Both the position numbers and the translations under genes were made by a program. Below the pieces are notes generated by a model, which saw only the letters and a list, made by a program, of their open reading frames with translations, was not told where the DNA came from and searched no databases. Below are positions 12,576 through 28,880 of a DNA stretch of 64,000 bases, piece by piece. The stretch is from NCBI GenBank assembly GCA_964373715.1, contig CAYJVR010000003.1, positions 47,050 through 111,049 on the forward strand, written 5' to 3'. Source of the DNA: an uncultured Planctomycetia bacterium. Its GTDB lineage: Bacteria > Omnitrophota > Gorgyraeia > 1-14-0-20-64-10. Positions within the stretch are counted from its first letter, which is position 1; each line of letters starts with the position of its first letter.

Positions 12576-12906
12576 TCTCAGCCCCTACGCTCGCAGTGCC
12601 CGGAACCGAAAACTTCCTCACCCGGACCACCGCCTCTTCCGGCCGGAACCGCCCCATCAGCTCTCCCGCAACCGCTTCAGCCAGCGCCTCCACAAGGCAA
12701 AATTGCTTTTTTTCCGTCATCTCCCGGACAATCTGGGCAACCGCCGCATAATCCACCGTCTTTTCAAACTGGTCACTCGTCCCGGCCGGTTTTAAATCCA
12801 ATACCAGCTCAATATCCACTGAAACCCGCTGTTCCCGCCCCCGTTCCTCTTCCGGGACGCCAACATGGGCCATGCACTCCAGTCCCTCAATCAAAATTTT
12901 ATCCAA
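12466..12906 (-). CDS. folB: Dihydroneopterin aldolase family protein (FolB/FolX-like)
   Basis: The N-terminal 115 aa have the ILIEGLE...GVxxEER...VDIEL...TVDYAAV FolB pattern. The C-terminal 28 aa overlap the queD 3' end convergently. Confidence 0.65.
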   Translation of the reverse strand: MDKILIEGLECMAHVGVPEEERGREQRVSVDIELVLDLKPAGTSDQFEKTVDYAAVAQIVREMTEKKQFCLVEALAEAVAGELMGRFRPEEAVVRVRKFSVPGTASVGAEIKRTAGRSRTMSEFPKAGPRRSGIPDSWRNRRSFEK

Positions 12907-13580: not shown

Positions 13581-14567
13581 TTACTTCTTTTTTCTTTTCA
13601 CGGCGCGGCGGGCGGCCTGCGCGATATCCGCCGCCGTCAATCCGTACTTCTTGAAAAGCTCTTCCGGCTGGCCCGACTCGGCGTAGGTGTCCTGAATACC
13701 GACAAACTCCACCGGGACAGGGTGTAGCCTGGAAAGAGCCTGCGATACGGCGGACCCGAGGCCGCCCCAGACCGAGTGCTCCTCCGCCACGACAAAAGCA
13801 CCTGTCGCTTCCGCCTGGGAGACCAGCAGGCTTTCATCCAGAGGTTTGATCGTGTGCATATCCACGACAGCGGCGGAGACCCCCTCTTTCTGCAGCTGCT
13901 CAGCGGCAAGAAGCGCCTCCCAAACAAGCAATCCGTTGGCCGCAAGGGTCACATCACTGCCGCTCCTGACCAGGATCCCTTTGCCCATCTTGACCGGCGT
14001 GGAGGGGCCGTGGATCACCGGGGCCTTCGGGCGGCCGGTCCGGATGTAGACCGGGCCCTCCGTCCCACCGGCTTCGGTAACCAAAGCGCGCGTGGAATGT
14101 TCGTCCGACGGCACAATCACCGTAAAATTCGGAAGGGAGGACATCAGCGCAACATCTTCGATGGACTGCTGAGAAGATCCATCCTCGCCGACGCTGATGC
14201 CGCCGTGCGAGGTGACCACCTTCACGTTCAGCTTCGGCAGCGCAACCGCCATCCGGAGCTGGTCGTATCCCTTACAGACCAGGAAACAGGCAAAGCTGGA
14301 AATAAACGGAATCTTACCGGAAGAGGCCAACCCCCCCGCCAATCCCACCATGTTCGCTTCGGCAATCCCAACGTTGAAAAACCGTTCAGGGAAAAGCTTC
14401 GCGAAAGCAGAGGTGCGTGTGGAGGAGGAGAGATCAGCGTCTAAAACGACGATTTTCGAATTCTTCTTCCCCAACTCGGCGAGGGCTTGTCCGTAGGCAT
14501 CCCGGGTGGCGAGTCCAAGTTTCTTTTCCACGGGTCTACGCGTGACTACAGCGCCGGTCATTGCCAT
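13581..14567 (-). CDS. Transketolase, C-terminal section (split transketolase subunit B)
   Basis: Pyrimidine-binding and C-terminal transketolase domains. 328 aa. Confidence 0.85.
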   Translation of the reverse strand: MAMTGAVVTRRPVEKKLGLATRDAYGQALAELGKKNSKIVVLDADLSSSTRTSAFAKLFPERFFNVGIAEANMVGLAGGLASSGKIPFISSFACFLVCKGYDQLRMAVALPKLNVKVVTSHGGISVGEDGSSQQSIEDVALMSSLPNFTVIVPSDEHSTRALVTEAGGTEGPVYIRTGRPKAPVIHGPSTPVKMGKGILVRSGSDVTLAANGLLVWEALLAAEQLQKEGVSAAVVDMHTIKPLDESLLVSQAEATGAFVVAEEHSVWGGLGSAVSQALSRLHPVPVEFVGIQDTYAESGQPEELFKKYGLTAADIAQAARRAVKRKKK

Positions 14568-14576
14568 AAGCCGCTT

Positions 14577-15464
14577 TCATTTACTCCCCTTCTTTACCTT
14601 GCCGGCCGCAATCAGCGCCTGGGAAAGAGAGGGATCCCCGTCCAGCTCCTTCAAAGCGGCCTGGGCCTCCTCGGAGGTTGGCGCCACTCCGTGGAAATAG
14701 TTGTTATTCTCCATAAAGGAAACCCCCTTCCCCTTCACCGTGTGGGCGATGATCAGGTGCGGCTGGCCTTTATGGGCCTTGGCCTGCTCGATGGCCTGGA
14801 GCACCTGCGGGATTGAATGGCCGTCCACCTCCTGGACATGCCAGCGAAACGATTCCCACTTGGCCTTGAACGGCTCCATATCGAGGATATCCTTGAGCGC
14901 TCCATCCAACTGAAACTTGTTGTAATCCACGATGGCGATGAGGCGGTCCAGCTTATGGAAGCCTGCGAAAGCCACCGCCTCCCAGGTTTGCCCCTCCTCC
15001 GTCTCGCCGTCGCTCATCAAGCAGTAGGTCCGGTAATCCTTCTTGTCCATCACCCCGGCCAGCGCGATACCGCAGGAAACCGAAAGCCCCTGGCCGAGAG
15101 AACCGGTCGAAGCCTCCAAAGCGGGTATAAACCTCTGGTCTGGGTGCCCCTGTAAAGGAGAACCGGTCTTGCGCAGGGTGGACAGCCACTCCTGGGGGAA
15201 ATAACCGGCCTTCGCCATCGCCGCGTAAAGGATCGGGCAGCCGTGCCCTTTGCTGAGAACGAACCGATCCCGGTCTTCCCAGTGCGGATTTTTCGGGTCA
15301 TACCGCATCACGTTGAAATAAAGGGAAGTGACGATGTCGGCTGCGGACAGCGAACCGCCCGGGTGGCCGGACGCAGACTTTTCCAGCATCCGGATCACCT
15401 CTTTCCTCATCTCACGAGCTACCTCTGGAAGCTGCGAAGCAGGCACTGAAAGTGACGTGGGCAT
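14577..15464 (-). CDS. Transketolase, N-terminal section (split transketolase subunit A, TPP-binding)
   Basis: GHPGGSLS and GDG..EG motifs. Start placed at ATG 15464 (MPTSL...), because the ORF-track start at 15536 is a TTG. Confidence 0.8.
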   Translation of the reverse strand: MPTSLSVPASQLPEVAREMRKEVIRMLEKSASGHPGGSLSAADIVTSLYFNVMRYDPKNPHWEDRDRFVLSKGHGCPILYAAMAKAGYFPQEWLSTLRKTGSPLQGHPDQRFIPALEASTGSLGQGLSVSCGIALAGVMDKKDYRTYCLMSDGETEEGQTWEAVAFAGFHKLDRLIAIVDYNKFQLDGALKDILDMEPFKAKWESFRWHVQEVDGHSIPQVLQAIEQAKAHKGQPHLIIAHTVKGKGVSFMENNNYFHGVAPTSEEAQAALKELDGDPSLSQALIAAGKVKKGSK

Positions 15465-15586
15465 TGCAAAAGGATAATACCGATTTTCTTGAACTCCGTC
15501 AACCCCAGCCTCCGGATTCCTCGCAATGACAAACAATTATCCTTTTGTTATAATAACCGCTCCGTTTCATTTTCTTTACCAAATCC

Positions 15587-16078
15587 ATGACGCAAAACAT
15601 CTTTTATCTTCTCGCCGCGCTGAGTATCGCCGGCGCGCTCGGGGTCATCCTGGCGCGCAACCCGGTGTATGCCGTTTTGAGCCTGGTGGCGACGATGTTC
15701 GCCATCTCCGGCATCTTTCTCCTACTGCACGCCTACTTCGTGGCGGCGATCCAGATCCTGGTCTACGCCGGCGCCGTGCTCGTGCTCTTCCTGTTCGTGG
15801 TGATGCTGCTGGACATGGCGCCGGAGACCATGTTCCGCATGAAGATCAACACGCTGAAAATCGGCGGCGCCCTTTTCAGCCTCTTCCTTCTCTGGGAAAT
15901 CCTGACGGCAGCAGGCTTCTTCACCATCCCTTCGGCTAACGACAACTCGTCCCAGGGAACGACAGCGGCGGTAGGCAAACTCCTTTTTACCCGCTACGCA
16001 CTGCCCTTTGAGCTGGCCTCAATCCTTCTTTTAGTCGGCATCATCGGCGCCATCGTGTTGGCCAAAAAGAAACTATGA
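15587..16078 (+). CDS. nuoJ: NADH-quinone oxidoreductase subunit J
   Basis: Typical NuoJ five-TM profile. First gene of nuoJKLMN. Confidence 0.85.
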   Translation: MTQNIFYLLAALSIAGALGVILARNPVYAVLSLVATMFAISGIFLLLHAYFVAAIQILVYAGAVLVLFLFVVMLLDMAPETMFRMKINTLKIGGALFSLFLLWEILTAAGFFTIPSANDNSSQGTTAAVGKLLFTRYALPFELASILLLVGIIGAIVLAKKKL

Positions 16079-16377
16079 TCTCACTCACACATCTGCTGGC
16101 ACTCAGCGGTATCCTTTTCGTCATCGGGCTAATCGGCACGATCACTCGGCGCAACATCATCATGATCCTGCTGAGCCTCGAGATCATCCTCAACGGGGTC
16201 AATATCGCTTTCGTCGCCTTCTCCTACGCTTTAGGCAACCTGACCGGGCAAATCATCGTCTTCTTCGTCATGATCGTCGCAGCGGTGGAGGTCACGGTGG
16301 GCCTAGCAATCGCTGTGGTCCTCGTCCAACAAATGGGCCAAACAAACGCCGATGAGCTGAAGCTGCTCAAATGGTAG
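16075..16377 (+). CDS. nuoK: NADH-quinone oxidoreductase subunit K
   Basis: 100 aa with 3 TM helices and conserved Glu residues. Confidence 0.85.
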   Translation: MISLTHLLALSGILFVIGLIGTITRRNIIMILLSLEIILNGVNIAFVAFSYALGNLTGQIIVFFVMIVAAVEVTVGLAIAVVLVQQMGQTNADELKLLKW

Positions 16378-18290
16378 AGCACCAAGAAATCGCCCGCGCT
16401 GCCGCGGCGCACACGGTCGCTCCGGCCGGCTGGCTCGCATGGACGATTCTCTTCCTGCCTCTGGCCGCATTTTTGGCAATCACTTTCCTTACCCGGAAAT
16501 CCAAACTCCTCAGCACCTCTTTAGCGATCGGCTCTATGGCCATCGGCCTGGCGGCAACCGGCACTCTTCTGCTTCATCTTCTGCGCGCCGGTGAGCACGC
16601 CGCTTATCAATACACCGTGAACTGGATCACCCTGCCAGGCCTGGCGGTCGAGTTCGGCCTGCTGATCAATCCCCTCTCGGTGCTGATGAGCCTTGTGGTC
16701 ACAGGGGTAGGTCTGATGATCTTCCTCTATTCGATTGGCTACATGGCGGACGACGCGGCCTACAGCCGCTACTTCGCCTACCTCTCCCTCTTCGCTTTCT
16801 CAATGCTCGGAATCGTGCTGGCCAATAACTTCGTCACCCTCTTCATGTCCTGGGAACTCGTGGGAGCCAGCTCCTACCTGCTGATCGGCTTCTGGTACGA
16901 CAAACCGGCGGCGGCCGATGCCGGTAAAAAAGCGTTTCTTGTCAACCGAATCGCCGACTTCGGCTTTTTGGCCGGAATCCTGATGCTCTGGAGCATCGCA
17001 GGCAACCAGCTCGACCCGAAAACGCTCAACCTCATTGAGCTGGAACAGAGGATGCCGGGCCTTATCGCGCAGTGGGGCGTGAACCTGTTTTCCCCGCTCT
17101 CGATCGCGGCACTGCTGATCTTCTGCGGAGCGGTCGGCAAGTCGGCCCAGTTTCCTCTGCATGTCTGGCTGCCCGACGCGATGCAGGGCCCGACGCCGGT
17201 TTCCGCCCTCATGCATGCCGCCACGATGGTGGCGGCGGGCGTTTACATGATCTGCCGGGTCTTTTTTCTCTTCGGAGAAGTTCCCGGCGCGCTCGAAATC
17301 ATCGCGGTGATCGGCGGCTTCACCTCGATCTTCGCGGCCAGCATGGCCCTCGTGGAAAACGACATCAAACGGATCCTCGCCTACTCCACCTTGAGCCAGC
17401 TCGGCACCATGGTGATGGCGCTGGGCCTGGGCGGCTACACCGCCGGCATGTACCACCTCTCCACGCACGCCTTCTTTAAAGCGCTTCTCTTTCTCGGCGC
17501 CGGCTGCGTGATTCACGCGATGCACTCGAACAACATCTGGCACATGGGAGGCTTAAAGAAAGCCATGCCGGTCACCACAGCCCTCTTTTTCATCGGCTCG
17601 CTCGCGCTGGCCGGCATCTGGCCCCTGTCCGGGTTCTGGAGCAAAGACGAGATCCTGGCGCTGGCCTTCGGCAAATGCAAGATCCTCTGGACGGTCGGCA
17701 CAGTGACCGCCGGAATGACCGCCTACTACATGGGCCGGGTGCTCTGCGTGGTTTTCCTGGGGGAACAACGGGACCACCACGCCCACCCGCACGAAGTACC
17801 TCCTGTCATGTATATGCCGCTCATCGTGCTGGCAATTTTCTCGGTGGTTGGCGGTTTTATTGGGATCCCCTCCCTGCTCCATCACGCAAAGGGGGTCCAC
17901 GTCGAGTTTAACAAGCTGGTGGCACTGATCTCCAGCGCCGCGGCAGCCGGCGGATTGTTGCTGGCTTTCAAGGTTTACGGCAAACAACCGCAAGAGGACC
18001 CATTCGCGGTGAGGTTCAAGGGGCTCACCCGCCTGCTGACCAGCAAATATTACATAGACGACATCTACGGCTGGCTCAACACCAACATCCAGCAGAGGAC
18101 GGCATTGGTCTCCGCTTGGGTGGAGCGAAACGTCATCATGAGTTTCCTCGTCAACGGCACCGCTAAAATTACCGGCTTGTCCGGCTCCCTCTTAACCAAA
18201 TTTCAGACCGGCAAAGTGCAGGCCTATGCGTTGAGCCTGGTCGCAGGCATCGGGATACTGATCTACGTGGGATGGCGATGCATCCCGTAA
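16371..18290 (+). CDS. nuoL: NADH-quinone oxidoreductase subunit L
   Basis: 639-aa antiporter-like subunit. Confidence 0.9.
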   Translation: MVEHQEIARAAAAHTVAPAGWLAWTILFLPLAAFLAITFLTRKSKLLSTSLAIGSMAIGLAATGTLLLHLLRAGEHAAYQYTVNWITLPGLAVEFGLLINPLSVLMSLVVTGVGLMIFLYSIGYMADDAAYSRYFAYLSLFAFSMLGIVLANNFVTLFMSWELVGASSYLLIGFWYDKPAAADAGKKAFLVNRIADFGFLAGILMLWSIAGNQLDPKTLNLIELEQRMPGLIAQWGVNLFSPLSIAALLIFCGAVGKSAQFPLHVWLPDAMQGPTPVSALMHAATMVAAGVYMICRVFFLFGEVPGALEIIAVIGGFTSIFAASMALVENDIKRILAYSTLSQLGTMVMALGLGGYTAGMYHLSTHAFFKALLFLGAGCVIHAMHSNNIWHMGGLKKAMPVTTALFFIGSLALAGIWPLSGFWSKDEILALAFGKCKILWTVGTVTAGMTAYYMGRVLCVVFLGEQRDHHAHPHEVPPVMYMPLIVLAIFSVVGGFIGIPSLLHHAKGVHVEFNKLVALISSAAAAGGLLLAFKVYGKQPQEDPFAVRFKGLTRLLTSKYYIDDIYGWLNTNIQQRTALVSAWVERNVIMSFLVNGTAKITGLSGSLLTKFQTGKVQAYALSLVAGIGILIYVGWRCIP

Positions 18291-19771
18291 CCTGGGCCCT
18301 CCTCTCCCCGTTTGTTGGGGTTACCCTGCTCTTCGTGATTCCACAGTCCCGCGTGGACTGGGTCCGCCGGATTTCGGCCATCTTCGCCTTCATCCCGTTC
18401 GTAATCGCCCTTTACCTTATCTCCCACTACGACAGAACCATCGCCGGCTACCAGTGGGTCCATAAAATCCCCTGGATCAGCTCACTCGGTGTCTCCTATC
18501 AGGTCGGCGTGGACGGAATCAGCGTCGTCCTCCTGCTCCTGCACTCCATCTGCGGATTGGCGGGGGTCTTGATCTCCTACCGGATCACGGAGCGTGTCAA
18601 AGAGTATTACATCTTCTACCTCATGCTGATCGGCGGCGTCACCGGCGTTTTCGTCTCGCTCGACCTCTTCTTTTTCTACATGTTCTACGAGATGGCGGTC
18701 ATCCCGATGTTCCCGCTGATCGGCATATGGGGGTCCGGCGAAAAGTATTACGCCACGATGAAGCTGACCCTCTACCTCACCGCCGGAGCGGTGCTCGCAT
18801 TGGTCGGGCTGATGATGGTCTACATGATCAGCGGCATTTGGACCTTCGACCTGATCTTTCTGGAAAGGTACCTGGCGCAGAACCCGATCCCGGGCCACAT
18901 CCAGATCTTCCTGTTCCCGTTCCTGCTGATCGGCTTCGGTGTGATCGCGCCGATGTGGCCATTCCACTCCTGGTCGCCGATCGGCCACGCCTCGGCACCG
19001 GCCGCCGTCTCCATGCTCCATGCCGGTGTGCTGATGAAGCTCGGCTCCTACGCGATCCTCAGGGTCGCGTTCCAGATCCTCCCGCAGGGGGCCTACACCT
19101 GGATGCCCTGGGTGGCGGTGCTCTGCACGATGAACATCCTGTACGGCGGTTTCGTAGCGATGGCGCAAAAGGACATCAAGTACACGATCGGCTACTCCTC
19201 TTCGAGCCACATGGGCTACGTCCTCTTGGGCCTGGCCTGCCTGAACCCGGTCGCCTTAAACGGGGCCGTTTTCCTCATGTTCGCGCACGGCATCATGACC
19301 GCGCTGGCCTTCGCCAGCGTCGGCCATATCTACGACCAGACCCACACCCGCATCACCTCCGACTGGGGCGGCCTCTCAAAAAGGATCCCCTTCATCGCAA
19401 CGATGTTCGTGCTGGCTGCGCTGGCCTCCAGCGGTCTGCCGGGCTTCGGCAATTTCGTCGGTGAATTGCTCATCTTCTTCGGCTCGTGGGACGTTTACCG
19501 CTGGCCTGCCCTCGCGGCAATCTTCGGCATCATCACCACAGCCTTCTACATGCTACGCGCCGTAAGGACCGGTTTCTTCGGCCCACTTAACCCAAAGTGG
19601 GAGCATCTCGAAGACGCCAATACACTTTTCGAGAAAGCGCCGTACCTCCTACTCGTGGGGGCGTTGGTCGCGGTCGGCTGCTGGCCGAGGCTCCTGACCG
19701 AGATCGTCTCCGTCTCAACCGGCAATATCTTGAGCCACCTCTCTCCCTTGAAAACACTGGCGGGACTCTAA
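18272..19771 (+). CDS. nuoM: NADH-quinone oxidoreductase subunit M
   Basis: 499-aa antiporter-like subunit. Confidence 0.9.
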   Translation: MAMHPVTWALLSPFVGVTLLFVIPQSRVDWVRRISAIFAFIPFVIALYLISHYDRTIAGYQWVHKIPWISSLGVSYQVGVDGISVVLLLLHSICGLAGVLISYRITERVKEYYIFYLMLIGGVTGVFVSLDLFFFYMFYEMAVIPMFPLIGIWGSGEKYYATMKLTLYLTAGAVLALVGLMMVYMISGIWTFDLIFLERYLAQNPIPGHIQIFLFPFLLIGFGVIAPMWPFHSWSPIGHASAPAAVSMLHAGVLMKLGSYAILRVAFQILPQGAYTWMPWVAVLCTMNILYGGFVAMAQKDIKYTIGYSSSSHMGYVLLGLACLNPVALNGAVFLMFAHGIMTALAFASVGHIYDQTHTRITSDWGGLSKRIPFIATMFVLAALASSGLPGFGNFVGELLIFFGSWDVYRWPALAAIFGIITTAFYMLRAVRTGFFGPLNPKWEHLEDANTLFEKAPYLLLVGALVAVGCWPRLLTEIVSVSTGNILSHLSPLKTLAGL

Positions 19772-19774
19772 CCG

Positions 19775-21202
19775 GTGGACACACTCCTTTACCTTCTCCC
19801 TGAAGTCTGGGTGAGCCTCCTGGCTCTCTTCGTACTTTTTCTCGACCTCTCCTGGGAAAAGGAACGGCATCCCCAAATCGGCCTCATGGCGGCGATGGGC
19901 ATGATCCCGGTACTGCCGATCCTGTTCATGCAGAGACAGCTCGGCACGGTGGATCTCCTGTACGGGATGTACCGGATTGACCAGGTCGCGCTCATCTTCA
20001 AGGGGATCTTCATCTTTGCCGCGATCTTCGTGATCCTGATGACCCGGGAGCAATCCCGGACGATGGAACGGGGCCACGGGGAATTTTACTTGCTGATCCT
20101 CGCGGCGACGCTCGGCATGATGTTCGCCGCTTCAGCCGCCGACTTCCTGATGCTGTTCGTCTCGCTGGAGCTGATCACGGTCAGCTTCTACGTGATGACC
20201 TCCTACTTGAAGACGAACCTCCGTTCGCTGGAGGCCGGCGTGAAATATCTGATCCTGGGCTCGATCTCCTCCGCCTGCCTGCTTTACGGGATCGCCTTCG
20301 TCTACGGCACCACCGGCTCGGTCAATTTCTCCGAAATCCGGCATTTCCTCAAGGGAACCCCTTATTCCGCCAGCTGTCTCTTCGGCCTTTTCCTTATCCT
20401 GGGCGGCATCCTCTTTAAAGCGACGGCGGTCCCGTTCCAGCTCTGGGCACCGGATGTTTACGAGGGGGCCCCGACGCCGGTGACAGCGTTCCTTTCGGTA
20501 GGGTCCAAATCGGCCGGGTTCCTCGTGGCTCTGCGGGTTTTCCACGAGCTGTTCATGCCGGCCAGCAGCGACTGGGTGCCGCTCATGGTCTGGCTGTCGG
20601 GCCTCACGATCCTTTACGGAAACCTGGGGGCGATCTCCCAAAAGAACATCAAGCGGCTGTTCGGCTACTCCTCGATCGGGCACGCCGGCTACTTATTGAT
20701 GGGGCTGGCAACCCCCTCGAGTCTCGGCACGACCGCGGTGATCTTTTATCTCACCGGCTACCTATTCACGAACATGGCTGCCTTCCTCGTCATCATCACC
20801 TTCTCCAGCCACACCAACTCGGATGAAATTAAGGATTACGCGGGCTTGGCCAGACGCTCGCCGTTCCTGGCGATGGTGATGTTCGTCTCCCTGCTCTCGC
20901 TGGCGGGCGTGCCGCCGATGGCCGGCTTTATCGGCAAATTCATGCTGCTGTTAAGCGCCCTCTCGGAAGGATTTTTAGTGCTGGCGGTGATCGGAGCGGC
21001 AGCGGTGGTGATCTCGCTCTACTACTATCTCATGATCGTCCGGACGATCTACGCCGACACCCCGTCCGACGCCTCCCCCATTCCGGTTTCCTGGCCGGCA
21101 AAGATCGCGATGATCACCTGCCTGGCCGGCATCTTCGTGATCGGCGTCTGGCAGGAGCCGTTTTTGAACGCCTCCTTCGCCGCCGTCAAGAAACTCTTCT
21201 GA
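19775..21202 (+). CDS. nuoN: NADH-quinone oxidoreductase subunit N
   Basis: 475-aa antiporter-like subunit. Confidence 0.9.
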   Translation: MDTLLYLLPEVWVSLLALFVLFLDLSWEKERHPQIGLMAAMGMIPVLPILFMQRQLGTVDLLYGMYRIDQVALIFKGIFIFAAIFVILMTREQSRTMERGHGEFYLLILAATLGMMFAASAADFLMLFVSLELITVSFYVMTSYLKTNLRSLEAGVKYLILGSISSACLLYGIAFVYGTTGSVNFSEIRHFLKGTPYSASCLFGLFLILGGILFKATAVPFQLWAPDVYEGAPTPVTAFLSVGSKSAGFLVALRVFHELFMPASSDWVPLMVWLSGLTILYGNLGAISQKNIKRLFGYSSIGHAGYLLMGLATPSSLGTTAVIFYLTGYLFTNMAAFLVIITFSSHTNSDEIKDYAGLARRSPFLAMVMFVSLLSLAGVPPMAGFIGKFMLLLSALSEGFLVLAVIGAAAVVISLYYYLMIVRTIYADTPSDASPIPVSWPAKIAMITCLAGIFVIGVWQEPFLNASFAAVKKLF

Positions 21203-21939
21203 TGGATCTGAACCAGGAACTTTTCATCGGCCTTCCGCGGCAGGGCCCGGGCAGCAACGCCTGCACGCGGAAAGCGCTTCGCCTTTTCACCAAACTCCCT
21301 CCGACACCGGAAATCCTCGACCTTGGCTGCGGCACCGGCTTGACCTCGGTTCAGCTTGCTCACCAGACCGGGGGGCATGTCACCGCGGTGGACATCTGCA
21401 AGCCGTACCTCGACCAGCTGACGATCTACTCCCAGCTCACCAGCCTGAATAACCGGGTCAAGCCGCATCTGGGCAAAATGGAAGAGCTGCCGTTCAAGAA
21501 GGAAAGCTTTGATCTGATCTGGGCCGAAGGCTCGATCTATCTGATCGGGTTCAAGAAAGGGCTCGAGTACTGGAGGGGGTTCCTCAAGAAGGGGGGATTC
21601 GCCTGCGTGAGCGAGCTGACCTGGCTCTCAAACGAGCCGCCGGATGAGCCGAAACGATTCTGGAAGAAGAAATACCCCGCGATGAAGGACATCCGGGGCA
21701 ACCTGAAGCTGGCCGAAGAGGCCGGTTACAAGCCAGTGGACCAGTACCTGATCCCCGAACTGGACTGGTGGCAGAATTACTACGGGCCGATGGAGCGGAG
21801 GATTGTGGACCTGCGTGGGCAGTACGCCGCCGACCCGGACGCCCTGCAGAAGCTCAAGGAACAGCAGGCGGAGCTCACTTTGTTCAAGGAATACGCGAAC
21901 ATCTACGGCTACGTCTTCTACGCCCTCCAAAAATCGTAG
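21202..21939 (+). CDS. Class I SAM-dependent methyltransferase, start-overlapping the nuoN stop
   Basis: LDLGCGTG motif I and a downstream acidic motif II. Confidence 0.7.
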   Translation: MDLNQELFIGLPRQGPGSNACTRKALRLFTKLPPTPEILDLGCGTGLTSVQLAHQTGGHVTAVDICKPYLDQLTIYSQLTSLNNRVKPHLGKMEELPFKKESFDLIWAEGSIYLIGFKKGLEYWRGFLKKGGFACVSELTWLSNEPPDEPKRFWKKKYPAMKDIRGNLKLAEEAGYKPVDQYLIPELDWWQNYYGPMERRIVDLRGQYAADPDALQKLKEQQAELTLFKEYANIYGYVFYALQKS

Positions 21940-21979
21940 GAATAGGTGTGGGGCTCCTTTTCGGAATCACCCTTATGGG

Positions 21980-22006
21980 GTCCTTCGACAAGCTCAGGGC
22001 GAACGG
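21980..22006. repeat. 27-bp dispersed repeat, family R3, copy A (MTase/nuoI convergent intergenic region)
   Basis: GTCCTTCGACAAGCTCAGGGCGAACGG, identical at 26 of 27 positions to 23985-24011. Confidence 0.65.
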
Positions 22007-22039
22007 GGTACCTCCGCCACAAGGCTTTGGCGGACGCCC

Positions 22040-22097
22040 CGTGAGCGGGGCGAAAAACAAAAACCGGGCGGCTCCTGAACAGGAACCACCCGGATTT
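22040..22097 (-). terminator. Candidate rho-independent terminator for the minus-strand nuoA-I operon. An adjacent GC hairpin may also terminate the plus-strand nuoJ-N/MTase transcript.
   Basis: Minus-strand RNA: CCGGGUGGUUCCUG-UUCA-GGAGCCGCCCGG followed by UUUUUGUUUUU. It lies just 3' of the nuoI stop. A neighbouring CGCCCCG-ugag-CGGGGCG hairpin is also present. Confidence 0.5.
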
Positions 22098-22124
22098 GCC
22101 TTTACCGGGGAGGGAGAGTTGGGG

Positions 22125-22787
22125 TCAGTGCCCTTTGGACGTTAGCTCCCGCAGGCGCTTCCAACCCTCTTCGGTAATCTGCTTCCGATCCTTATTATAC
22201 ACCTGCTTCCAGTCTCCCGTCATCTCTTCTTTATGGAACGAGCATTTGTGGGGGAACTTGAGGTCGCATTTCTTGGTGGCCTTGCGCAGTTTCGGATCCA
22301 TCAGCTCATGGATGTCCAGCTTCATCTCGTCGCGGGTGTAGGCCGCCACGTCAAGGATATTCGTGTCCATCCGGATCGCGTCCTCCGGGCAGACCTCCAC
22401 GCAGTAGCCGCAATAGACGCAGACCCCCAGGTCAATATCGAACTTGACAGGGTACTTCTCCACGTTTGGGTCCGGGTGCTCGCCGGCCACGATCGTGATG
22501 CATTTGGCCGGGCAGACCGTCTCGCAGAGCATACAGCCCACGCACCGGGGGGTCCCCTCTTCGCGGACAGTCAGCCGGTGCCGGCTCCGGAAGCGGGGGG
22601 CCAACGGCCTCGGGTTCTCCGGGTATTGGAACGTCACGCCGGCCTGCACATCCTTCATCAGGCCGAACCGGTGGGCCGTGTGGATCCCCAGGTTCCGGAA
22701 GAAGTGAACGGAGGTGATATAGACCCCCCGGAAGATCTCCGGCAGGTACAGGTTTTCCCAGAATGTCAGTTCCCTCTTACGGATCAT
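22125..22787 (-). CDS. nuoI: NADH-quinone oxidoreductase subunit I with a ~60-aa Lys-rich C-terminal extension
   Basis: Two CxxCxxCxxxCP ferredoxin motifs. 220 aa versus the typical ~160-180 aa. Confidence 0.85.
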   Translation of the reverse strand: MIRKRELTFWENLYLPEIFRGVYITSVHFFRNLGIHTAHRFGLMKDVQAGVTFQYPENPRPLAPRFRSRHRLTVREEGTPRCVGCMLCETVCPAKCITIVAGEHPDPNVEKYPVKFDIDLGVCVYCGYCVEVCPEDAIRMDTNILDVAAYTRDEMKLDIHELMDPKLRKATKKCDLKFPHKCSFHKEEMTGDWKQVYNKDRKQITEEGWKRLRELTSKGH

Positions 22788-22790
22788 GCG

Positions 22791-23930
22791 CTACCAGCCT
22801 TTCGGGAAGAAGACCGCCATCACCAAAGCCGTCACCGCCACGTTCGCCAGCGCGATCGGGAAAAGGACCTTCCAGCCGAGCTTCATCAGCTGGTCGTAGC
22901 GAAACCTCGGCAAGGTCCAGCGGATCGTCATGAAGAGCCAGCAGAAAAAGATCACCTTCAGCGAGAAGGACCCGACGCCCATCAGGGCGTAGACCAGGTT
23001 ATTCACCGGCACCGACCCCCCCCAGGGAAAGTAAAACCCGCTCGGAGAAAGGAACGGCACCTGCCACCCGCCAAGGAATAGGGTGGTAAGCAGGCAGGAG
23101 ATCAGCACCGTCTCGAGGAAATCCACCATGAAGAAGATGCCGAACTTCATGCCGCTGTACTCCACAAAATAGCCGACGATCTCCGACTCCCCTTCCGGGA
23201 GGTCGAAGGGAATCCTTTTGGTCTCGGCGAGCGCCGCCGCCATGAAGACGAAGAAGGCGACCGGCTGGAGGAATATCCCCCACATCGGCAGAAAGCCGAA
23301 CAGATACCTGCCCTGCGCCCTCACCATCTCCTGCAGGTCGAGCGTGCCGTAGAGCATCACGAGGCCGATGATCGAGATCCCCAGCGCGATCTCATAGGAG
23401 ATCATCTGGGCCGAGGCCCGCAGGGAGCCGAGGATCGCGTAGTTATTTTTTGAGGAGAAGCCGGCCAGGATCACGCCGTAGACCCCGAGCGACATCATCG
23501 CGAAAACGTACAAAAGGGCGATGTCAATCTTGGCGATCTGCAGGTCGATCACCTGCCCGCTTAAGACCAGCCGGTCGCCGAACGGAATGCCGGCGAACGC
23601 CACCAGCGCGAAAAACATCGAGAGGAACGGGGCCAGCGTGTGGAGGAACCGGTCGGCGTTGGCCGGAATGAAATCCTCCTTGGTAAACATCTTCACAGCA
23701 TCGGCGACCGGGTGGAACAGCCCGAGTACATTGAGCGGCCTCAGCAACCAGTTGATCGGCGCCGCCCATTTCCAGGGTAGACGGATATAGGCCCGGTTTG
23801 CGCCAATCCGGTCCTGCATCAGGGCCGACTGCTTGCGCTCGACCCAGGCATGCAGACCCCCCAGTTGGAGCACGAAACCGAGAATAAAGGCCCCCGCCAG
23901 ACCGGCCTTGACCGCAATCACGGAGATCAT
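22791..23930 (-). CDS. nuoH: NADH-quinone oxidoreductase subunit H
   Basis: 379-aa polytopic ND1-like protein. Confidence 0.9.
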   Translation of the reverse strand: MISVIAVKAGLAGAFILGFVLQLGGLHAWVERKQSALMQDRIGANRAYIRLPWKWAAPINWLLRPLNVLGLFHPVADAVKMFTKEDFIPANADRFLHTLAPFLSMFFALVAFAGIPFGDRLVLSGQVIDLQIAKIDIALLYVFAMMSLGVYGVILAGFSSKNNYAILGSLRASAQMISYEIALGISIIGLVMLYGTLDLQEMVRAQGRYLFGFLPMWGIFLQPVAFFVFMAAALAETKRIPFDLPEGESEIVGYFVEYSGMKFGIFFMVDFLETVLISCLLTTLFLGGWQVPFLSPSGFYFPWGGSVPVNNLVYALMGVGSFSLKVIFFCWLFMTIRWTLPRFRYDQLMKLGWKVLFPIALANVAVTALVMAVFFPKGW

Positions 23931-23952
23931 CGGGCGGCCACCTCGATCTCAC

Positions 23953-25623
23953 TCATGGTGAGCCTGTCGAACCATGAGCAGCGCGTCCTTCGACAAGCTC
24001 AGGACGAACGGTGGTTAATTGCGCACCCTGCAGGCCGATCTTGTCGTGCGAAAGCCCTTCGAAAGCCGGATTCTCGGCCGCCAGCTTCGCAAAGATCTCT
24101 TCAGGCGACGCAAAGGGGGCCGGGATCTCCAACAGATGGAACAGCTCCAGAAGTGTTTTCCAGTCGGGGCGGGCCTCCCCCAGAGGAGCGAAGGCCGGCA
24201 GTATCCGCTGTACCCTGCCGTGGCAGTTGACGAACGTACCGTTGTTTTCCGCGAAGACGGCGCTCGGCAAAACCCAGTGGGCATGCTTCGCGGTGCCGTT
24301 CTCGTTCGGCCCCTGGAACACGAACACCTCCAGCTTGTCGGCCAGCGTTTTCACCTTCTCTTCGCCGATCAGATTGACCAGGTCATGGCCGAAGACCCAG
24401 AGGGTCTTGATCTCGCCGGCCAAAGCCTTCTCGATGATCGCGCCGGAAGCGCTGGCCCCGTTGCCCGGCTTGGCCGGCGCGGAAGCCCCCGGGAAACCGA
24501 CCAGCGTGGCCCCGAGCGTGTTCGGATTCTTGTCCCCCTTGATGAGGAAGTCGTCGGAAGAGCCGGGCTGGCGCGGCACCTGGATGTCGCAGTGGCCGAT
24601 CCCCAGAGATTCCTTGAACAGCTTGCGGACCAGATAAAGCTCCTCGTTGGTCTGCTGGGCCGACGGAAGCACACCGACCTGCCCCTGCTTCCCTTCCGAT
24701 TTCGCGCGGCTGAGCGCATCGGCGAGCCCGCTCAGCGCCTGGTCCCAGGTAGTTTCACGCCCCTTCTGCCGGACCTTCAGTATCCGGTCCTTATCAATGA
24801 ACTTGTAACCGTAGCGGCCCTCGTCGCACATCCACCACTGGTTCACCTCTGAGTTGTACCGGGGCTTGACCCGCATCACGCGGGCGCCGTCGGCCAGGTG
24901 CGGCCGGTCGGTGACGTAATGAAGATCAATGTTGCAACCCTGCGAACAACCGGTGCAGACCGACGGGGCCGTTGAAAGATACCAGACCCTCGCTTTGAAC
25001 CGGAAATCTCGGTCGGTCAGGGCTCCAACCGGGCAGATGTCTACCACGTTGCCGGAGTAATTGTTTTCGAGCACCTTGCCCGGATAGAGACCAACTTCCG
25101 CCTTGTCTCCCCGGTTAAAAATCCCCAGTTCGCCGGTCTTGCTCACTTCATCGGTGAACCGGGTGCATCGGGAGCAGAGAACACACCTCTCGGCGTCCAG
25201 CATCACGGTGGGGCCAAGAGGCAGAGCCTTCGCCTTCTTGACCTTCTGCTCCTGGAACCGTGAATCGTACAGCCCGTACTGCATGTAGAAATTCTGCAGG
25301 TCGCACTCCCCCGACTGGTCGCAGACCGGGCAGTCGAGAGGATGGTTGATCAGCAGGAACTCAAGCACCGACTGCTGGCCCTCGGTCACTTTCTGGGAGT
25401 TGGTGCGGACTACCATCCCCTCGGCGACCGGTGTGTTGCAGGCAATCTGGAGTTTCGGGGCTTTCTCGATCTCCACGAGGCAGATCCGGCAGTTGCCGGC
25501 AATCGAGAGGCCCGGGTGATAGCAGTAGCGGGGCACGAAGATGCCGAGTTTCTCCGCCGCCTGGATCACCGTCGTCCCGGGCGGGACCTCGACCTCTTTT
25601 CCGTCAATCGTCAGTTTAGGCAT
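23953..25623 (-). CDS. nuoG: NADH-quinone oxidoreductase subunit G (short form)
   Basis: The N-terminal 2Fe-2S and 4Fe-4S Cys motifs are present. The last ~17 codons are encoded by a dispersed 27-mer repeat. Confidence 0.85.
   Translation of the reverse strand: MPKLTIDGKEVEVPPGTTVIQAAEKLGIFVPRYCYHPGLSIAGNCRICLVEIEKAPKLQIACNTPVAEGMVVRTNSQKVTEGQQSVLEFLLINHPLDCPVCDQSGECDLQNFYMQYGLYDSRFQEQKVKKAKALPLGPTVMLDAERCVLCSRCTRFTDEVSKTGELGIFNRGDKAEVGLYPGKVLENNYSGNVVDICPVGALTDRDFRFKARVWYLSTAPSVCTGCSQGCNIDLHYVTDRPHLADGARVMRVKPRYNSEVNQWWMCDEGRYGYKFIDKDRILKVRQKGRETTWDQALSGLADALSRAKSEGKQGQVGVLPSAQQTNEELYLVRKLFKESLGIGHCDIQVPRQPGSSDDFLIKGDKNPNTLGATLVGFPGASAPAKPGNGASASGAIIEKALAGEIKTLWVFGHDLVNLIGEEKVKTLADKLEVFVFQGPNENGTAKHAHWVLPSAVFAENNGTFVNCHGRVQRILPAFAPLGEARPDWKTLLELFHLLEIPAPFASPEEIFAKLAAENPAFEGLSHDKIGLQGAQLTTVRPELVEGRAAHGSTGSP
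23985..24011. repeat. R3 repeat copy B (encodes the C-terminal tail of nuoG)
   Basis: GTCCTTCGACAAGCTCAGGACGAACGG. Read in the nuoG frame it encodes ...VRPELVEGRA... Confidence 0.65.
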
Positions 25624-27489
25624 TTAGGCGTGGACCTCTGTCCTTGCCAGATCGCACTTCCCGGTGGCGACGTGGTGCTCGAACTCGCTCCGGAACTTGT
25701 TGATGTAGCTCTGCACCGGCCAGGCCGCCGCGTCGGCGAAAACGCAGATCGTTTTCCCCTCCATGTTGGAGGCGATCGAGAGCATGTTGTTGATGTCGGC
25801 GGGCCGTCCTTGCGCGTTCTTCACCCGGTCCATGATCTTGAGAATCCAGCCGGTCCCCTCCCGGCACGGGGAGCATTGGCCGCACGACTCGTCGGCGAAG
25901 AAGTGGGCGGCGCTCTGCAAAGCGTCCACCATGCAGGTGGTCTCATCCATCACGATTACGCCGGCCGAACCGGCCATCGTGCCGGCCGCCATCAGCGAAT
26001 CGAAGTCCATGCCGACCTCTATCTCATCAGCCTTCAGGATCTTCGCGGAGATGCCTCCCGGCACCACCGCCTTGAGCTTCTTGCCCTCCCGGATGCCGCC
26101 CGCGTATGTCGCGGAGTAGATCAGTTCTTTTAATGAGACGCCGGCGGAGGCCTCGTAAAGGCCGGGCCGGACCACGTGGCCGGAAACAGAAAAAAGCCGC
26201 GTGCCCCCCTGCTTCGGGGTGCCCAGCTTGGCGAACCACTCGGGGCCGTTGCGGATGATCGGCGGCACAGCGGCGAGGGTCTCCACGTTGTTCACGATCG
26301 TCGGACACTTGAAGAGGCCGGAGATCGCCGGGAACGGCGGCTTCAGTTTCGGGAAACCCTTGCTCCCTTCGAGCGAGGAAAGCAAAGCCGTCTCCTCCCC
26401 GCAGATGTAGGCGCCGGCCCCCTTGTGCACCACGAGCTCCAGGTCAAAACCGGATCCCTGGATGTTCTTGCCCAGCCACCCTTTGGCGTACGCCTCAGCG
26501 ACCGCCTTGCCAAAGCGCTCGATCGAGCGGTCGTATTCGCCCCGGATGTAAACATAAGATTTATGGGAACCGATCGCGTAGGCGGCGATGATGATCCCTT
26601 CGATTAAAGAGTGAGGGTCCCTCTCGAGGATATACCGGTCCTTGAAGGTGCCCGGCTCCCCCTCGTCGGCGTTGACCACGAGGAACTTCGGCTTCGGGGA
26701 ATTCTTCGGGATGAACGACCACTTCTTGCCGGTCGGAAAGCCGGCGCCGCCGAGGCCGCGCAGATTCGCCTTGCTGACCGTGTCGATCACCTGCTCCGGC
26801 TTCATCGTGCTCAACACCTGCTTCGCCGCCTGATAGCCCTTGTCGGCCGTGTAGGCGTCGAACCAGGCGCCGGCCACGCTCTTGAAACGGCTCGAGATCA
26901 CCGGCCCCTCTGTGGCAATGTGAAGCGCCGGTTCCGGAACGTTCAGACTCCCGCCCGGGCCGCTCCGGGTCTGCTGGATCACCGTCTCGAAGATGGTTTT
27001 ATCGGTCAGGCAGCCGACGTATTGCTTGTTCACCTGAGCGCAGGGGGCCGCCTCGCACGCGCAGAGACACTCGACCGTGGAAAGGGTCACCTGCCCGTCC
27101 GGCGTGGTCTCTCCGGGAGATATCCCGTACCGCTCCTTCATCTGGGCGATCACGTTCTTCGACCCTTTAAGGAGACACGGCAGGGAGACGCAAACCTGGA
27201 CGTTGTATTTGCCGACTGGCTTCGTGTGATAAAGGGTGTAGAAGGAAACCACCTCCCGGACATGGACAATGCTGGTCTCCACCTTGTCAGCCACCCATTG
27301 TTCCGCTTCGGGGGTAAGATAACCGATCGAATCCTGCGCGAGCCACAACAGAGGCAGGGTCGTGGCTCGCTTCTCCTCGTACTTCTCGAGGATCTCGTTC
27401 GCCTGGGCTTCCAGTTTTTGGAAGTCGAATTTTCCGTGCCCCATGCCCCCCGCCCCTTGTCCCTTATCTCCTGCTCCCTGTCCCATCAT
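25624..27489 (-). CDS. nuoEF: Fused NADH-quinone oxidoreductase subunits E and F (24-kDa 2Fe-2S domain plus 51-kDa FMN/NADH/4Fe-4S domain)
   Basis: The N-terminal ~170 aa have the NuoE Cys motifs (CVSLPC...CLCACEAAPC). The remainder is NuoF, with GLGGAGFPTGKKWSF, a GEPGTFKDR segment and the 4Fe-4S CGQCSPCREG motif. The N-terminal leader is Gly-rich. Confidence 0.85.
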   Translation of the reverse strand: MMGQGAGDKGQGAGGMGHGKFDFQKLEAQANEILEKYEEKRATTLPLLWLAQDSIGYLTPEAEQWVADKVETSIVHVREVVSFYTLYHTKPVGKYNVQVCVSLPCLLKGSKNVIAQMKERYGISPGETTPDGQVTLSTVECLCACEAAPCAQVNKQYVGCLTDKTIFETVIQQTRSGPGGSLNVPEPALHIATEGPVISSRFKSVAGAWFDAYTADKGYQAAKQVLSTMKPEQVIDTVSKANLRGLGGAGFPTGKKWSFIPKNSPKPKFLVVNADEGEPGTFKDRYILERDPHSLIEGIIIAAYAIGSHKSYVYIRGEYDRSIERFGKAVAEAYAKGWLGKNIQGSGFDLELVVHKGAGAYICGEETALLSSLEGSKGFPKLKPPFPAISGLFKCPTIVNNVETLAAVPPIIRNGPEWFAKLGTPKQGGTRLFSVSGHVVRPGLYEASAGVSLKELIYSATYAGGIREGKKLKAVVPGGISAKILKADEIEVGMDFDSLMAAGTMAGSAGVIVMDETTCMVDALQSAAHFFADESCGQCSPCREGTGWILKIMDRVKNAQGRPADINNMLSIASNMEGKTICVFADAAAWPVQSYINKFRSEFEHHVATGKCDLARTEVHA

Positions 27490-28817
27490 CGATCCAGCTC
27501 CCCGCCGATCATGTTGACCGACCCAAAGGTCGGGACCACGTCGGCCATCTGGTCGCCGTTCAACAAGAGAGGCAGCGCCCCCATGATAGTAAAGCAGGGG
27601 GGCCTCACCCGGACCCGGTAGGGGTTCTCGGTGCCATCGCTCACGATGTAGAAACCGAGTTCCCCGTTGGCCCCTTCGACCGGCACGTACGCCTCACCCT
27701 TAGGCGGGCGTATCCCGTGGCCGACCATCACCAGCTTGAAGTGGTTCATCAGCCCTTCGATGTTGCCGTAGGTGTCCTCTTTTGCCGGCAGGAAAACCCT
27801 CTTCTCCGGCGCGGCGATATCTTTCCAGACCGTTTTGTCGGTCCCCTGCAAAGTGGGGTCCACCTCCGCCATCTTGCCAGCGATCTCCCGGATCTTGCCC
27901 ATCTTGGCCTCGTCGATCATTTCGGCAGCCGGGATCGGCTCGAGCGCCTCCGGCTTGACCGGCAGGCCGGTCTCCGGGTCCACCGCAACGTGCCCGCCGG
28001 GGATATCCTTCAGGCATTGTTCAATAATCCGGATGGACTGCTCCATCTCCTCCATCCGGCAGTAGTAGCGGTCCAGGTTGTCGCCGTGCGAACCGAGCGG
28101 AACATCAAACTGAAGCCGGTCATAAATCGAGTAGGCGCAAGCCTTGCGCACGTCGTAATTGACGCCGGTACTCCGCAGGAACGGCCCGGTGATTCCGTAG
28201 GAGATGGCATCCTTCTGGGAGATTTTGCCGGTCCCCTTCATTCGGTCCACGAAGATCCGGTTGCGGGTCAAAAGCTTGTCGCACTCCGCAATAACGTCGC
28301 GCACATCCTTCAACGCTTTTCTCGTCTTCTCCTCGAAACCGGGCGGCAGGTCGGCCTTCACGCCGCCGACGCGGCAGTAGGAGACGGTCAGCCTCGCGCC
28401 GGTCACCATCTCCACCAACTCCCAGAGGTACTCGCGCGCCTTGATCATATAGAGGAAGACGGTGAAGGCTCCGAGCTCCATCGCGGAGGCGCCGACACAA
28501 GTGAGGTGATCGGTGATGCGCGATATCTCCGAAACGATCACCCGGATGTATTCGCAGCGCTCCGGCACCTTCAGGCCGAGCAGTTTCTCGACCGCCATCG
28601 CGTAGCCGACGTTGTTGATGAGCGGCGAGACGTAGTTCAAGCGGTCGGTGTACGGGAAGACGCCGTTGTAGGTGACCGTCTCCGACATCTTCTCGAATCC
28701 CCGGTGCAGGTAACCGATCTCGACGTCCGTGGAGCGGATCGTCTCCCCTTCCAGGCCAACGATGATCCGGATGATCCCGTGCATCGCCGGATGGGCAGGG
28801 CCGACATTCAGCAGCAT
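27486..28817 (-). CDS. nuoD: NADH-quinone oxidoreductase subunit D (49 kDa) with a ~40-aa internal insertion
   Basis: Start placed at ATG 28817 (MLLNVGPAHPAMHG...). The 31 upstream codons of the ORF (to the GTG at 28910) lie inside a copy of the 48-bp dispersed repeat and are probably non-coding. Confidence 0.8.
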   Translation of the reverse strand: MLLNVGPAHPAMHGIIRIIVGLEGETIRSTDVEIGYLHRGFEKMSETVTYNGVFPYTDRLNYVSPLINNVGYAMAVEKLLGLKVPERCEYIRVIVSEISRITDHLTCVGASAMELGAFTVFLYMIKAREYLWELVEMVTGARLTVSYCRVGGVKADLPPGFEEKTRKALKDVRDVIAECDKLLTRNRIFVDRMKGTGKISQKDAISYGITGPFLRSTGVNYDVRKACAYSIYDRLQFDVPLGSHGDNLDRYYCRMEEMEQSIRIIEQCLKDIPGGHVAVDPETGLPVKPEALEPIPAAEMIDEAKMGKIREIAGKMAEVDPTLQGTDKTVWKDIAAPEKRVFLPAKEDTYGNIEGLMNHFKLVMVGHGIRPPKGEAYVPVEGANGELGFYIVSDGTENPYRVRVRPPCFTIMGALPLLLNGDQMADVVPTFGSVNMIGGELDR

Positions 28818-28880
28818 CTCCTTCGTCTGCAAAGAAGACGCGTCATCGCGAGACCCCGAAGGGGTCGTGGCAATCTCGTT

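Follow-up and report, generated by a model that had tools for sequence, protein, structure and literature searches.

A methyltransferase gene directly behind nuoN in the complex I locus of an uncultured Omnitrophota bacterium

If a methyltransferase gene begins on the last base of nuoN, then we can ask: does its product serve complex I, or does the gene simply share the neighbourhood? The question is raised by the window (the whole stretch of 64,000 nucleotides analysed here, from an uncultured member of the Omnitrophota), in which a SAM-dependent methyltransferase gene (MTase) ends the series of genes for the complex I membrane arm. The mitochondrial factors NDUFAF7 (MidA/DUF185, PF02636) and NDUFAF5 have the SAM-dependent methyltransferase fold in common with the encoded enzyme. 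However, their association with complex I is physical and functional, whereas that of the window MTase is one of gene order only. By analogy with them, the MTase might methylate a Nuo subunit or aid assembly of the membrane arm.

The gene and its transcription unit

The features of the locus are collected in Table 1. The MTase gene is the sixth and last of the nuoJKLMN series, all on the + strand, as the first-pass annotation had placed it. The distances at the successive junctions from nuoJ to MTase are -4, -7, -19, +3 and -1 nt. Since it lies on the nuo strand, packed against or overlapping the nuo genes with no promoter or terminator between, the gene behaves here as an operon member.

The junction reads ...ttc TGATG gat..., its A at 21202 closing the nuoN stop and opening the MTase start. 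The overlap is thus of a single nucleotide and not the 4-nt ATGA overlap described at first. Such packing would still imply co-transcription and probably coupled translation, so the proposed coupling to nuoN stands. A Shine-Dalgarno-like GGAGG was not found in the 20 nt upstream of the MTase start. This start codon is supported by alignment of the N-terminus with the N-termini of 29 homologues. The gene does not differ from its flanks in GC content (0.57-0.59).

The promoter-like site upstream of nuoJ agrees with the consensus at 11 of 12 positions and is the sole promoter-like site on the + strand within 15000-23000, which makes it a candidate promoter of the nuoJKLMN-MTase unit. The spacer behind MTase folds no more stably than shuffled sequence (z -0.52), and its terminator-like hairpin, when read on the + strand, has no T-run after it. 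Neither the Rfam scan nor the tRNA scan gave a match in the window. The remaining nuo genes (nuoA-I), absent from the first-pass annotation, face MTase convergently on the - strand, beginning 185 nt downstream.

Table 1. Coordinates of the nuo genes, the MTase gene and associated signals in the window
Feature	Position	Strand	Remarks
Promoter-like site upstream of nuoJ	15526..15554	+	ATGACA, 17-nt spacer, TATAAT with TG; consensus match only
nuoJ	15587..16078	+	PF00499, 2e-41
nuoK	16075..16377	+	PF00420, 5.6e-25; overlaps nuoJ by 4 nt
nuoL	16371..18290	+	PF00361 and PF00662
nuoM	18272..19771	+	PF00361, 8.8e-62
nuoN	19775..21202	+	GTG start, stop TGA; TIGR01770 399 bits vs cut-off 332.6
TGATG junction	21200..21204	+	direct reading; nuoN stop TGA 21200-21202 and MTase ATG have base 21202 in common
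MTase, BT_2972/BVU_3255 family, class I SAM-dependent	21202..21939	+	245 aa; ATG start, intact
Spacer between convergent MTase and nuoI	21940..22124		185 nt, two hairpins
Intrinsic-terminator-like hairpin	22064..22093	-	13 pairs, then TTTTTGTTTT; ends nuoA-I unit
nuoI, last gene of convergent nuoA-I unit	22125..22787	-	TIGR01971 117.5 bits vs cut-off 113
nuoH	22791-23930	-	Pfam matches
nuoG, short	23953-25623	-	Pfam matches
nuoE-nuoF, fused	25624-27489	-	Pfam matches
nuoD	27486-28910	-	Pfam matches
nuoC	28939-29541	-	Pfam matches
nuoB	29516-30025	-	Pfam matches
nuoA	30148-30528	-	Pfam matches

Family and fold of the enzyme

The gene encodes a SAM methyltransferase, as first annotated, and one of class I, with a Methyltransf_25 match at 2.7e-15, the motif I sequence ILDLGCGTG and all 27 of the 27 invariant columns of its family. 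Homology to a BT_2972/BVU_3255-like PDB chain extends over the full length, C-terminal cap included (E 1.4e-53; query 9-244, chain 21-256), and the three-dimensional fold with its family-specific cap is that of BT_2972/BVU_3255. Compared with 29 family members, the protein is 41-71% identical along its whole length. The SAM-binding and pocket residues R13, P16, G17, D40, G44, G46, D64, D104, W107, E109, G110, W141, Y158, W189, Y193, Y194, E224, Y235, G236 and F239 are all retained. Judged by its sequence, MTase is a soluble, catalytically intact class I enzyme of the BT_2972/BVU_3255 family.

The known structures come from Bacteroides and were deposited by structural genomics as 'putative methyltransferase': BT_2972 (PDB 3f4k, 3svz, 3sxj, 3t0i), BVU_3255 (3e7p, 3t7r, 3t7s, 3t7t) and B. 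fragilis Q5LES9 (3kkz), each about 35-45% identical to MTase. These are stand-alone genes, whereas the window MTase is joined to the end of the nuoJKLMN transcription unit. The family is also represented in Methanoculleus, Methanococcoides, Peptoclostridium, cyanobacteria and Asgard archaea, and forms 605 clusters at 50% identity with E<=1e-30, the entire nuo-linked clade falling into one of them. Its members are found fused to MerR HTH domains (4 of the 10 long members), GNAT, nucleoside phosphorylase and alpha/beta hydrolase. A literature search for a methyltransferase downstream of nuoN, or for functional work on 3f4k, 3kkz or 3e7p, turned up the structure paper on BT_2972 alone, which likewise reached a small-molecule methyltransferase view and stated the substrate to be undetermined (PMC3225368).

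The closest structural neighbours of MTase methylate small molecules and protein methyltransferases score lower, and on these grounds it is apparently a further member of a widespread small-molecule methyltransferase family. NDUFAF7, in contrast, is a protein arginine methyltransferase. Its family PF02636 (Methyltransf_28) is absent among the 15 Pfam families listed for MTase at E<=10, so that the HMM comparison suggested at first pass spoke against NDUFAF7, and no MidA-type chain occurs among the PDB matches at E<=0.01. Against an approximate human NDUFAF5 sequence, for which the PDB has no entry, only residues 22-132 (the SAM core) align, at 29% identity (BLASTP), and the similarity is no more than a lead.

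The nuoN linkage and the nuoN/nuoI junction

How far does the linkage to nuoN extend? Adjacency of nuoN and MTase was found only in the four closest Omnitrophota lineages, which form one shallow clade; the six linked sequences from these lineages are monophyletic in the neighbour-joining tree (the P0002 and P0122 loci were counted as one lineage). Between lineages the linked MTases are 63-73% identical, and no other sequence exceeds 51% identity to them; nuoN identity within the clade is 73-77%. Recent horizontal transfer of the gene was considered and rejected in view of its flank-like GC content and of this divergence, which is similar to that of nuoN.

Within the clade the arrangement is tight (the five loci read have spacings of -1, -1, +2, +4 and +9 nt), and it outlasts rearrangement on the downstream side. 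For example, three genes have been gained between MTase and nuoI in L091 and L092, and the gene downstream of MTase is a different one in L090, with the nuoN-MTase adjacency kept in each. Survival of the adjacency in all four lineages could reflect selection for co-expression. Both the packing and its persistence are what a complex I factor would lead one to see, and sixteen residues that the nuo-linked clade has in common, but that other family members rarely carry, could mark an altered specificity. On the other hand, the family-conserved pocket residues are kept: of the 54 positions with >=90% conservation among 116 unlinked members, 45 are the same in each of the five nuo-linked sequences.

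Beyond the clade, no nuo gene lay near the homologues in any of 81 loci from other phyla (40-49% identity; flanks to 6 kb where the contig allowed), and no MTase lay near distant nuoN (36-50% identity) in any of 80 metagenome loci, 58 of which have >=800 nt downstream of nuoN. This metagenome scan was dominated by the generic NuoN pattern WAPDVYEG, returned only the 36-50% relatives and was used as a negative control; close relatives were reached by nuoN protein search and contig look-ups. Of at least 583 confirmed matches in the genome scan, the 80 best were used, none of these from Omnitrophota. When 1291 neighbouring ORFs from the 81 unlinked loci were clustered, no neighbour family recurred in more than 7 loci, and no respiratory or quinone-related family was recurrent.

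The junction itself varies in closer relatives. In five Omnitrophota genomes, with nuoN at 71, 66, 65, 64 and 58% identity, the locus as fetched lacks MTase. The convergent layout, nuoJKLMN facing nuoI..A, is kept in four of these five; in L177 (64%) nuoI is beyond the fetched sequence. In the relative with nuoN at 71% identity, a TPR gene occupies the MTase position and begins 2 nt after nuoN. Since this unrelated gene is packed just as closely, tight coupling is a property of the slot and not of MTase, which weighs against a complex I factor. The other cargoes, each in one relative, are ParE/RHH with an aldo-keto reductase; AbiEii and AAA_14/DUF4143 with an aldo-keto reductase; a PhdYeFM antitoxin with a giant ORF; and HTH/Gp49 with small genes. 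The aldo-keto reductases adjoin nuoI where they occur.

The junction of the convergent Omnitrophota nuo halves has repeatedly received toxin-antitoxin and other accessory genes, and it is comparable to the variable toxin-antitoxin or defence cargo of other convergent-operon junctions in that unrelated genes occupy it in related genomes. Unlike such cargo, MTase is vertically inherited within its clade and matches its flanks in GC content; no test run showed it to be a mobile or defence gene.

Conservation of the nuoN-MTase coupling in relatives, which the first-pass annotation had asked about, therefore holds in the four closest lineages and fails in the 81 loci beyond the clade and in the five other Omnitrophota; an association conserved across lineages with complex I was not seen (0/81, 0/80 and 0/5). 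That annotation had also named two observations that would speak against its proposal, homologues never linked to nuo genes elsewhere and a grouping with UbiE/MenG. Linkage does recur, in one shallow clade only, and MTase does not group with UbiE/MenG.

What the methyltransferase may do

From about ten loci of uncultured genomes we conclude that MTase is probably a passenger, lineage-specific cargo in a variable slot that is co-expressed with the complex I membrane arm and is not a dedicated complex I factor. One copy would have been inserted once, in the ancestor of the shallow Omnitrophota clade, where the convergent nuo halves meet. Because it landed right behind nuoN without room for a promoter of its own, it would be transcribed by read-through from the nuoJ promoter, and ribosomes terminating on nuoN would probably restart at the overlapping ATG to translate it. 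MTase has most likely kept the ancestral chemistry of its family, small-molecule methylation in an aromatic, acidic pocket. Read-through expression and ancestral chemistry together would account for a gene that is co-expressed with the membrane arm without being devoted to it.

We consider it unlikely that MTase methylates a menaquinone precursor, in a MenG-type end step of the futalosine pathway or an extra ring methylation, and owes its co-expression with complex I to making that enzyme's electron acceptor. UbiE/MenG/Coq5 and UbiG are, like MTase, class I Rossmann-fold SAM methyltransferases; PF01209 (UbiE/COQ5) lies just above its gathering score (22.6 vs 20.1 bits, E 7.8e-5), a marginal match confined to the core (profile positions 49-171 of 233); several homologues carry the JGI label 'UbiE', a generic COG2226 label; and a hydrophobic, polyprenyl-like substrate has been proposed for BT_2972 from pocket shape alone (PMC3225368). 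Menaquinone-related genes of the window are one that is MqnA/MqnD-like, at 4303-5133 (PF02621, 4.6e-77), and sdh/frd, for succinate dehydrogenase/fumarate reductase, at 8215-11436, with no canonical MenG among the annotated ORFs. However, in the HMM comparison with UbiE and UbiG proposed at first pass the curated models are far under their cut-offs (TIGR01934 MenG/UbiE 34 vs 158 bits; UbiG TIGR01983 29.9 vs 103; PRK00216 29 and NF001244 29.4 vs 216; NF001241 27 vs 327). Quinone-biosynthesis genes do not recur beside family members in the 81 loci, and Omnitrophota relatives with the same complex I have no MTase at the site. Family members are present in Methanoculleus and Peptoclostridium, which to our knowledge are without respiratory quinones.

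A membrane-lipid or amine methyltransferase whose product alters the membrane around complex I, for example one that is cyclopropane-synthase-like or that N-methylates phospholipid or phosphoethanolamine, is a still more doubtful candidate. In superposition the pocket of BT_2972 falls on the CTAB site of CmaA1 (PMC3225368), and the many invariant aromatic and acidic residues (W107, E109, W141, Y158, W189, Y193, Y194, E224, Y235 and F239) would suit a transition state of cationic or carbocation-like character. But this is an argument from fold class only; identity to such enzymes is just 14-21%, the match to the Pfam family CMAS is without significance (E 0.066) and lipid-metabolism neighbours do not recur in the 81 unlinked loci.

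Recruitment of the MTase to respiration in the Omnitrophota clade, where its target would be either a Nuo subunit or the pool of menaquinone reduced by complex I, seems to us very improbable. If true, it would be the first case of a bacterial methyltransferase devoted to complex I function, and the BT_2972 family would gain a first physiological substrate. Least probable of all is the role in subunit or cofactor modification or in assembly, like that of NDUFAF5 and NDUFAF7, that the first-pass annotation had proposed, since the protein is without an NDUFAF7-type domain, has small-molecule enzymes as its nearest structural neighbours and belongs to a family whose nuo linkage is confined, in the loci sampled, to one clade.

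If MTase did serve complex I, bacteria would have an equivalent of the mitochondrial assembly methyltransferases, and an orphan enzyme family with five solved crystal structures would become easier to approach. The passenger reading, to which the evidence points, carries a different message. On that reading the gene order records a single insertion at a variable junction, so the case is mainly a caution against reading function from one operon adjacency. Two modest positive results accompany it: the variable nuo junction as a landing site for accessory genes, and the survey of the BT_2972 family, whose about 600 clusters at 50% identity, lack of conserved gene context and repeated MerR fusions may aid the search for its substrate.

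The MTase gene in a split complex I cluster

The SAM-dependent methyltransferase (MTase) gene lies where it was first described, and the alignment of its N-terminus with those of 29 homologues supports the ATG start codon. Its upstream neighbour is nuoN (TIGR01770, 399 bits; cut-off 332.6). The first-pass annotation reported that the MTase start overlaps the nuoN stop; the overlap is present, but the motif is TGATG and not ATGA, a small error. The boundary reads ...ttc TGATG gat..., with one base common to the stop TGA (21200-21202) and the start ATG (21202-21204). The genes 5′ of the MTase are, in order, nuoJ, K, L, M and N, and the successive junction distances are -4, -7, -19, +3 and -1 nt. 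Just 5′ of nuoJ lies a promoter-like site, the only one on this strand between 15000 and 23000. Because of this packing and this sole promoter-like site, the MTase is on this evidence the sixth cistron of the nuoJKLMN unit, as had been proposed.

The remaining complex I genes, absent from the first-pass annotation, are set convergently on the complementary strand. Since nuoI..A end 185 nt from the MTase stop, the MTase occupies the junction of two convergent half-operons, nuoJKLMN (+) and nuoABCD-(E-F fusion)-G-H-I (-), which together span 15587-30528. The + strand reading of the hairpin at 22064-22093 has no T-run. This split layout was also detected in the relatives' loci L006, L175, L176 and L178, and persists in Omnitrophota relatives whose NuoN is as little as 58% identical. 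Divergent from nuoJ, transketolase is encoded as two genes (13581-15536), as in L006 and L177. Further along the window lie a 1244-aa ORF and a complete SUF-type Fe-S assembly cluster, whose NifU-like gene is fused to a FeS_assembly_P domain.

Features of the window, MTases adjoining nuoN, and junction slots in relatives
Locus	Feature	Position	Strand	Remarks
Window	MqnA/MqnD-like futalosine-pathway gene	4303-5133	-	PF02621, 4.6e-77
Window	succinate dehydrogenase/fumarate reductase	8215-11436	-	three genes
Window	transketolase, pyrimidine-binding + C-terminal half	13581-14567	-	
Window	transketolase, N-terminal half	14577-15536	-	
Window	promoter-like site	15526-15554	+	11/12 matches; consensus match only
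Window	nuoN	19775-21202	+	
Window	MTase	21202-21939	+	245 aa
Window	strong terminator-like hairpin, then T-run	22093-22064	-	serves nuoA-I unit
Window	nuoI	22125-22787	-	
Window	nuoH, short nuoG (556 aa), fused nuoE-nuoF, nuoD, nuoC, nuoB, nuoA	up to 30528	-	behind nuoI
Window	fused nuoE-nuoF	25624-27489	-	one 621-aa ORF
Window	1244-aa ORF	34876-38610	-	sole Pfam match weak GNAT acetyltransferase domain, residues 581-680; remainder unannotated
Window	SUF cluster	47946-54730	+	Rrf2 regulator, sufC, sufB, sufD, Rieske-type ferredoxin, A-type carrier, sufS, NifU-like
Window	Rieske-type ferredoxin	51921-52229	+	SUF cluster
Window	A-type carrier	52245-52568	+	SUF cluster
Window and identical contigs	linked MTase			100%; nuoN-MTase -1 nt
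P0002	linked MTase			71% to window; -1 nt; same 90%-identity cluster as P0122
P0122 group	linked MTase			73%; +2 nt; three extra genes between MTase and nuoI
P0003	linked MTase			69%; +4 nt; upstream ORF is NuoN, 77% identical
P0004 (Omnitrophica GCA_023818695.1)	linked MTase			63%; +9 nt; whole locus syntenic
L174 (nuoN 71%)	slot	4415-4969		TPR gene from 2 nt after nuoN stop; 3′ end overlaps convergent nuoI end
L175 (nuoN 66%)	slot	7433-9088		ParE/RHH toxin-antitoxin pair; aldo-keto reductase (8033-9088) adjoining nuoI
L176 (nuoN 65%)	slot	7553-11307		AbiEii, AAA_14/DUF4143 ATPase, aldo-keto reductase (10306-11307)
L177 (nuoN 64%)	slot	7710-13437		PhdYeFM antitoxin, giant ORF >1866 aa; nuoI beyond fetched sequence
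L178 (nuoN 58%)	slot	7445-9917		HTH/Gp49 pair, several small genes
L178	100-aa GIY-YIG (T5orf172-like) ORF	2362-2664		between nuoK and nuoL

Distribution of the linkage and the variable junction

Conservation of the nuoN-MTase coupling holds for the closest lineages (-1 to +9 nt) but not beyond them. Homologues 40-49% identical were examined at 81 loci with at most 6 kb of flank; 80 of these came from a one-genome-per-species scan (the best 80 of at least 583 confirmed matches) and represent cyanobacteria, Myxococcota, Binatota, Chloroflexota, Brevibacillus, Methanococcoides, Asgard archaea and Bathyarchaeia. A tblastn comparison with all thirteen proteins of the window revealed a nuo gene at none of the 81, and no neighbour family recurred in more than 7 loci. 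Likewise, no MTase stood beside distant nuoN genes (36-50% identity) at 80 metagenome loci, 58 of which offered at least 800 nt 3′ of nuoN. The adjacency is genuine and confined to one clade, and we found no description in the literature of an MTase behind nuoN. The best named relatives, for both NuoN and the MTase, are 'Candidatus Omnitrophica' MAGs. In a neighbour-joining tree the linked MTases form a single clade, and none exceeds 51% identity to a family member outside it.

Five further Omnitrophota relatives keep the nuoJKLMN unit and have no MTase in the fetched locus. The slot holds unrelated cargo in each of them, so accessory genes have repeatedly settled at this junction. Nor is close packing against nuoN peculiar to the MTase: the TPR gene of L174 shows it as well. 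Directly 3′ of nuoI on the same strand, the aldo-keto reductase of L175 and L176 is another accessory enzyme at the end of a nuo half-operon. The GIY-YIG ORF of L178 (Omnitrophota MAG GCA_023248155.1) may be a homing endonuclease remnant.

Family of the protein

The Pfam matches are all to generic domains of class I MTases (Methyltransf_25, 2.7e-15), apart from a marginal UbiE/COQ5 match to the core (22.6 vs. 20.1 bits). No NCBIfam model reached its cut-off: the best was the DVU_1556 family (57 vs. 155 bits), while MenG/UbiE scored 34 against 158 and UbiG 29.9 against 103. Among PDB entries, 3f4k and 3svz (Bacteroides BT_2972) gave a strong full-length match (E 1.4e-53, residues 9-244); next came 3kkz, 3t7r and 3e7p (BVU_3255). 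Coq5 and UbiG ranked 34th and 36th, aligning in the Rossmann core only, and protein MTases such as PrmA and NTM1 scored lower still. The only paper found on the family concludes that BT_2972 methylates small molecules and has a hydrophobic pocket, and states that its substrate "remains to be experimentally determined" (PMC3225368); our MTase is likewise probably a small-molecule enzyme. All 27 family-invariant columns are kept in it, and 45 of the 54 positions conserved at ≥90% do not vary among the linked sequences. The family's catalytic and pocket residues are thus retained, which argues for ancestral chemistry and against a new protein-directed activity.

The family is widespread: a word-indexed search gave 1334 homologues, including those of Methanoculleus, Methanococcoides, Peptoclostridium litorale, cyanobacteria and KSB3. 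When 1.84 billion cluster representatives were searched exhaustively with HMMER, 605 clusters matched at E≤1e-30, and all nuo-linked MTases collapse into one of them. Four of ten unusually long members (P0252, P0290, P0307, P0381) carry an N-terminal MerR HTH, a hint that the MTase domain binds or modifies a small-molecule effector. The other partners are GNAT, PNP_UDP_1 nucleoside phosphorylase, alpha/beta hydrolase or DUF2239 (P0341, P0279, P0311, P0301), and none of the extra domains indicates respiration.

Origin and possible role

A passenger insertion is the best reading of the adjacency. In the simplest account, a BT_2972-family gene would have entered the junction once, at the base of a shallow clade, and been inherited vertically since. 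Within that clade identities are 73-77% for NuoN and 63-73% for the MTase, and in GC content the gene matches its flanks. The spacing leaves no room for a promoter; expression is likely by read-through, with translation restarting after nuoN, and we infer both steps.

Adjacency to nuoN has outlasted downstream rearrangement in two lineages, and 16 residues common to the linked clade are rare elsewhere in the family; both observations would suit an MTase directed at a quinone, a lipid or complex I. So would the MqnA/MqnD-like protein and the succinate dehydrogenase/fumarate reductase, which make menaquinone the probable acceptor for this complex I. Both loci are no more than 17 kb from the nuo genes and imply menaquinone-based respiration. 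A quinone-directed role nevertheless seems unlikely to us; for the family as a whole, it is opposed by the members in Methanoculleus and Peptoclostridium, which are not known to have respiratory quinones. We give a lipid substrate less credence again. The least probable is the proposed complex I factor resembling NDUFAF7 or NDUFAF5: the NDUFAF7/MidA domain PF02636 gave no match even at E≤10, the family is one of putative small-molecule enzymes, the linkage is limited to a clade and the slot is variable. A provisional human NDUFAF5 sequence aligned over the SAM-binding core only (residues 22-132), which serves as a lead.

The MTase adds a member to an enzyme family that has solved structures and no assigned function. 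Of modest side interest are this orphan BT_2972 family and the variable junction where the two halves of the Omnitrophota nuo cluster meet.
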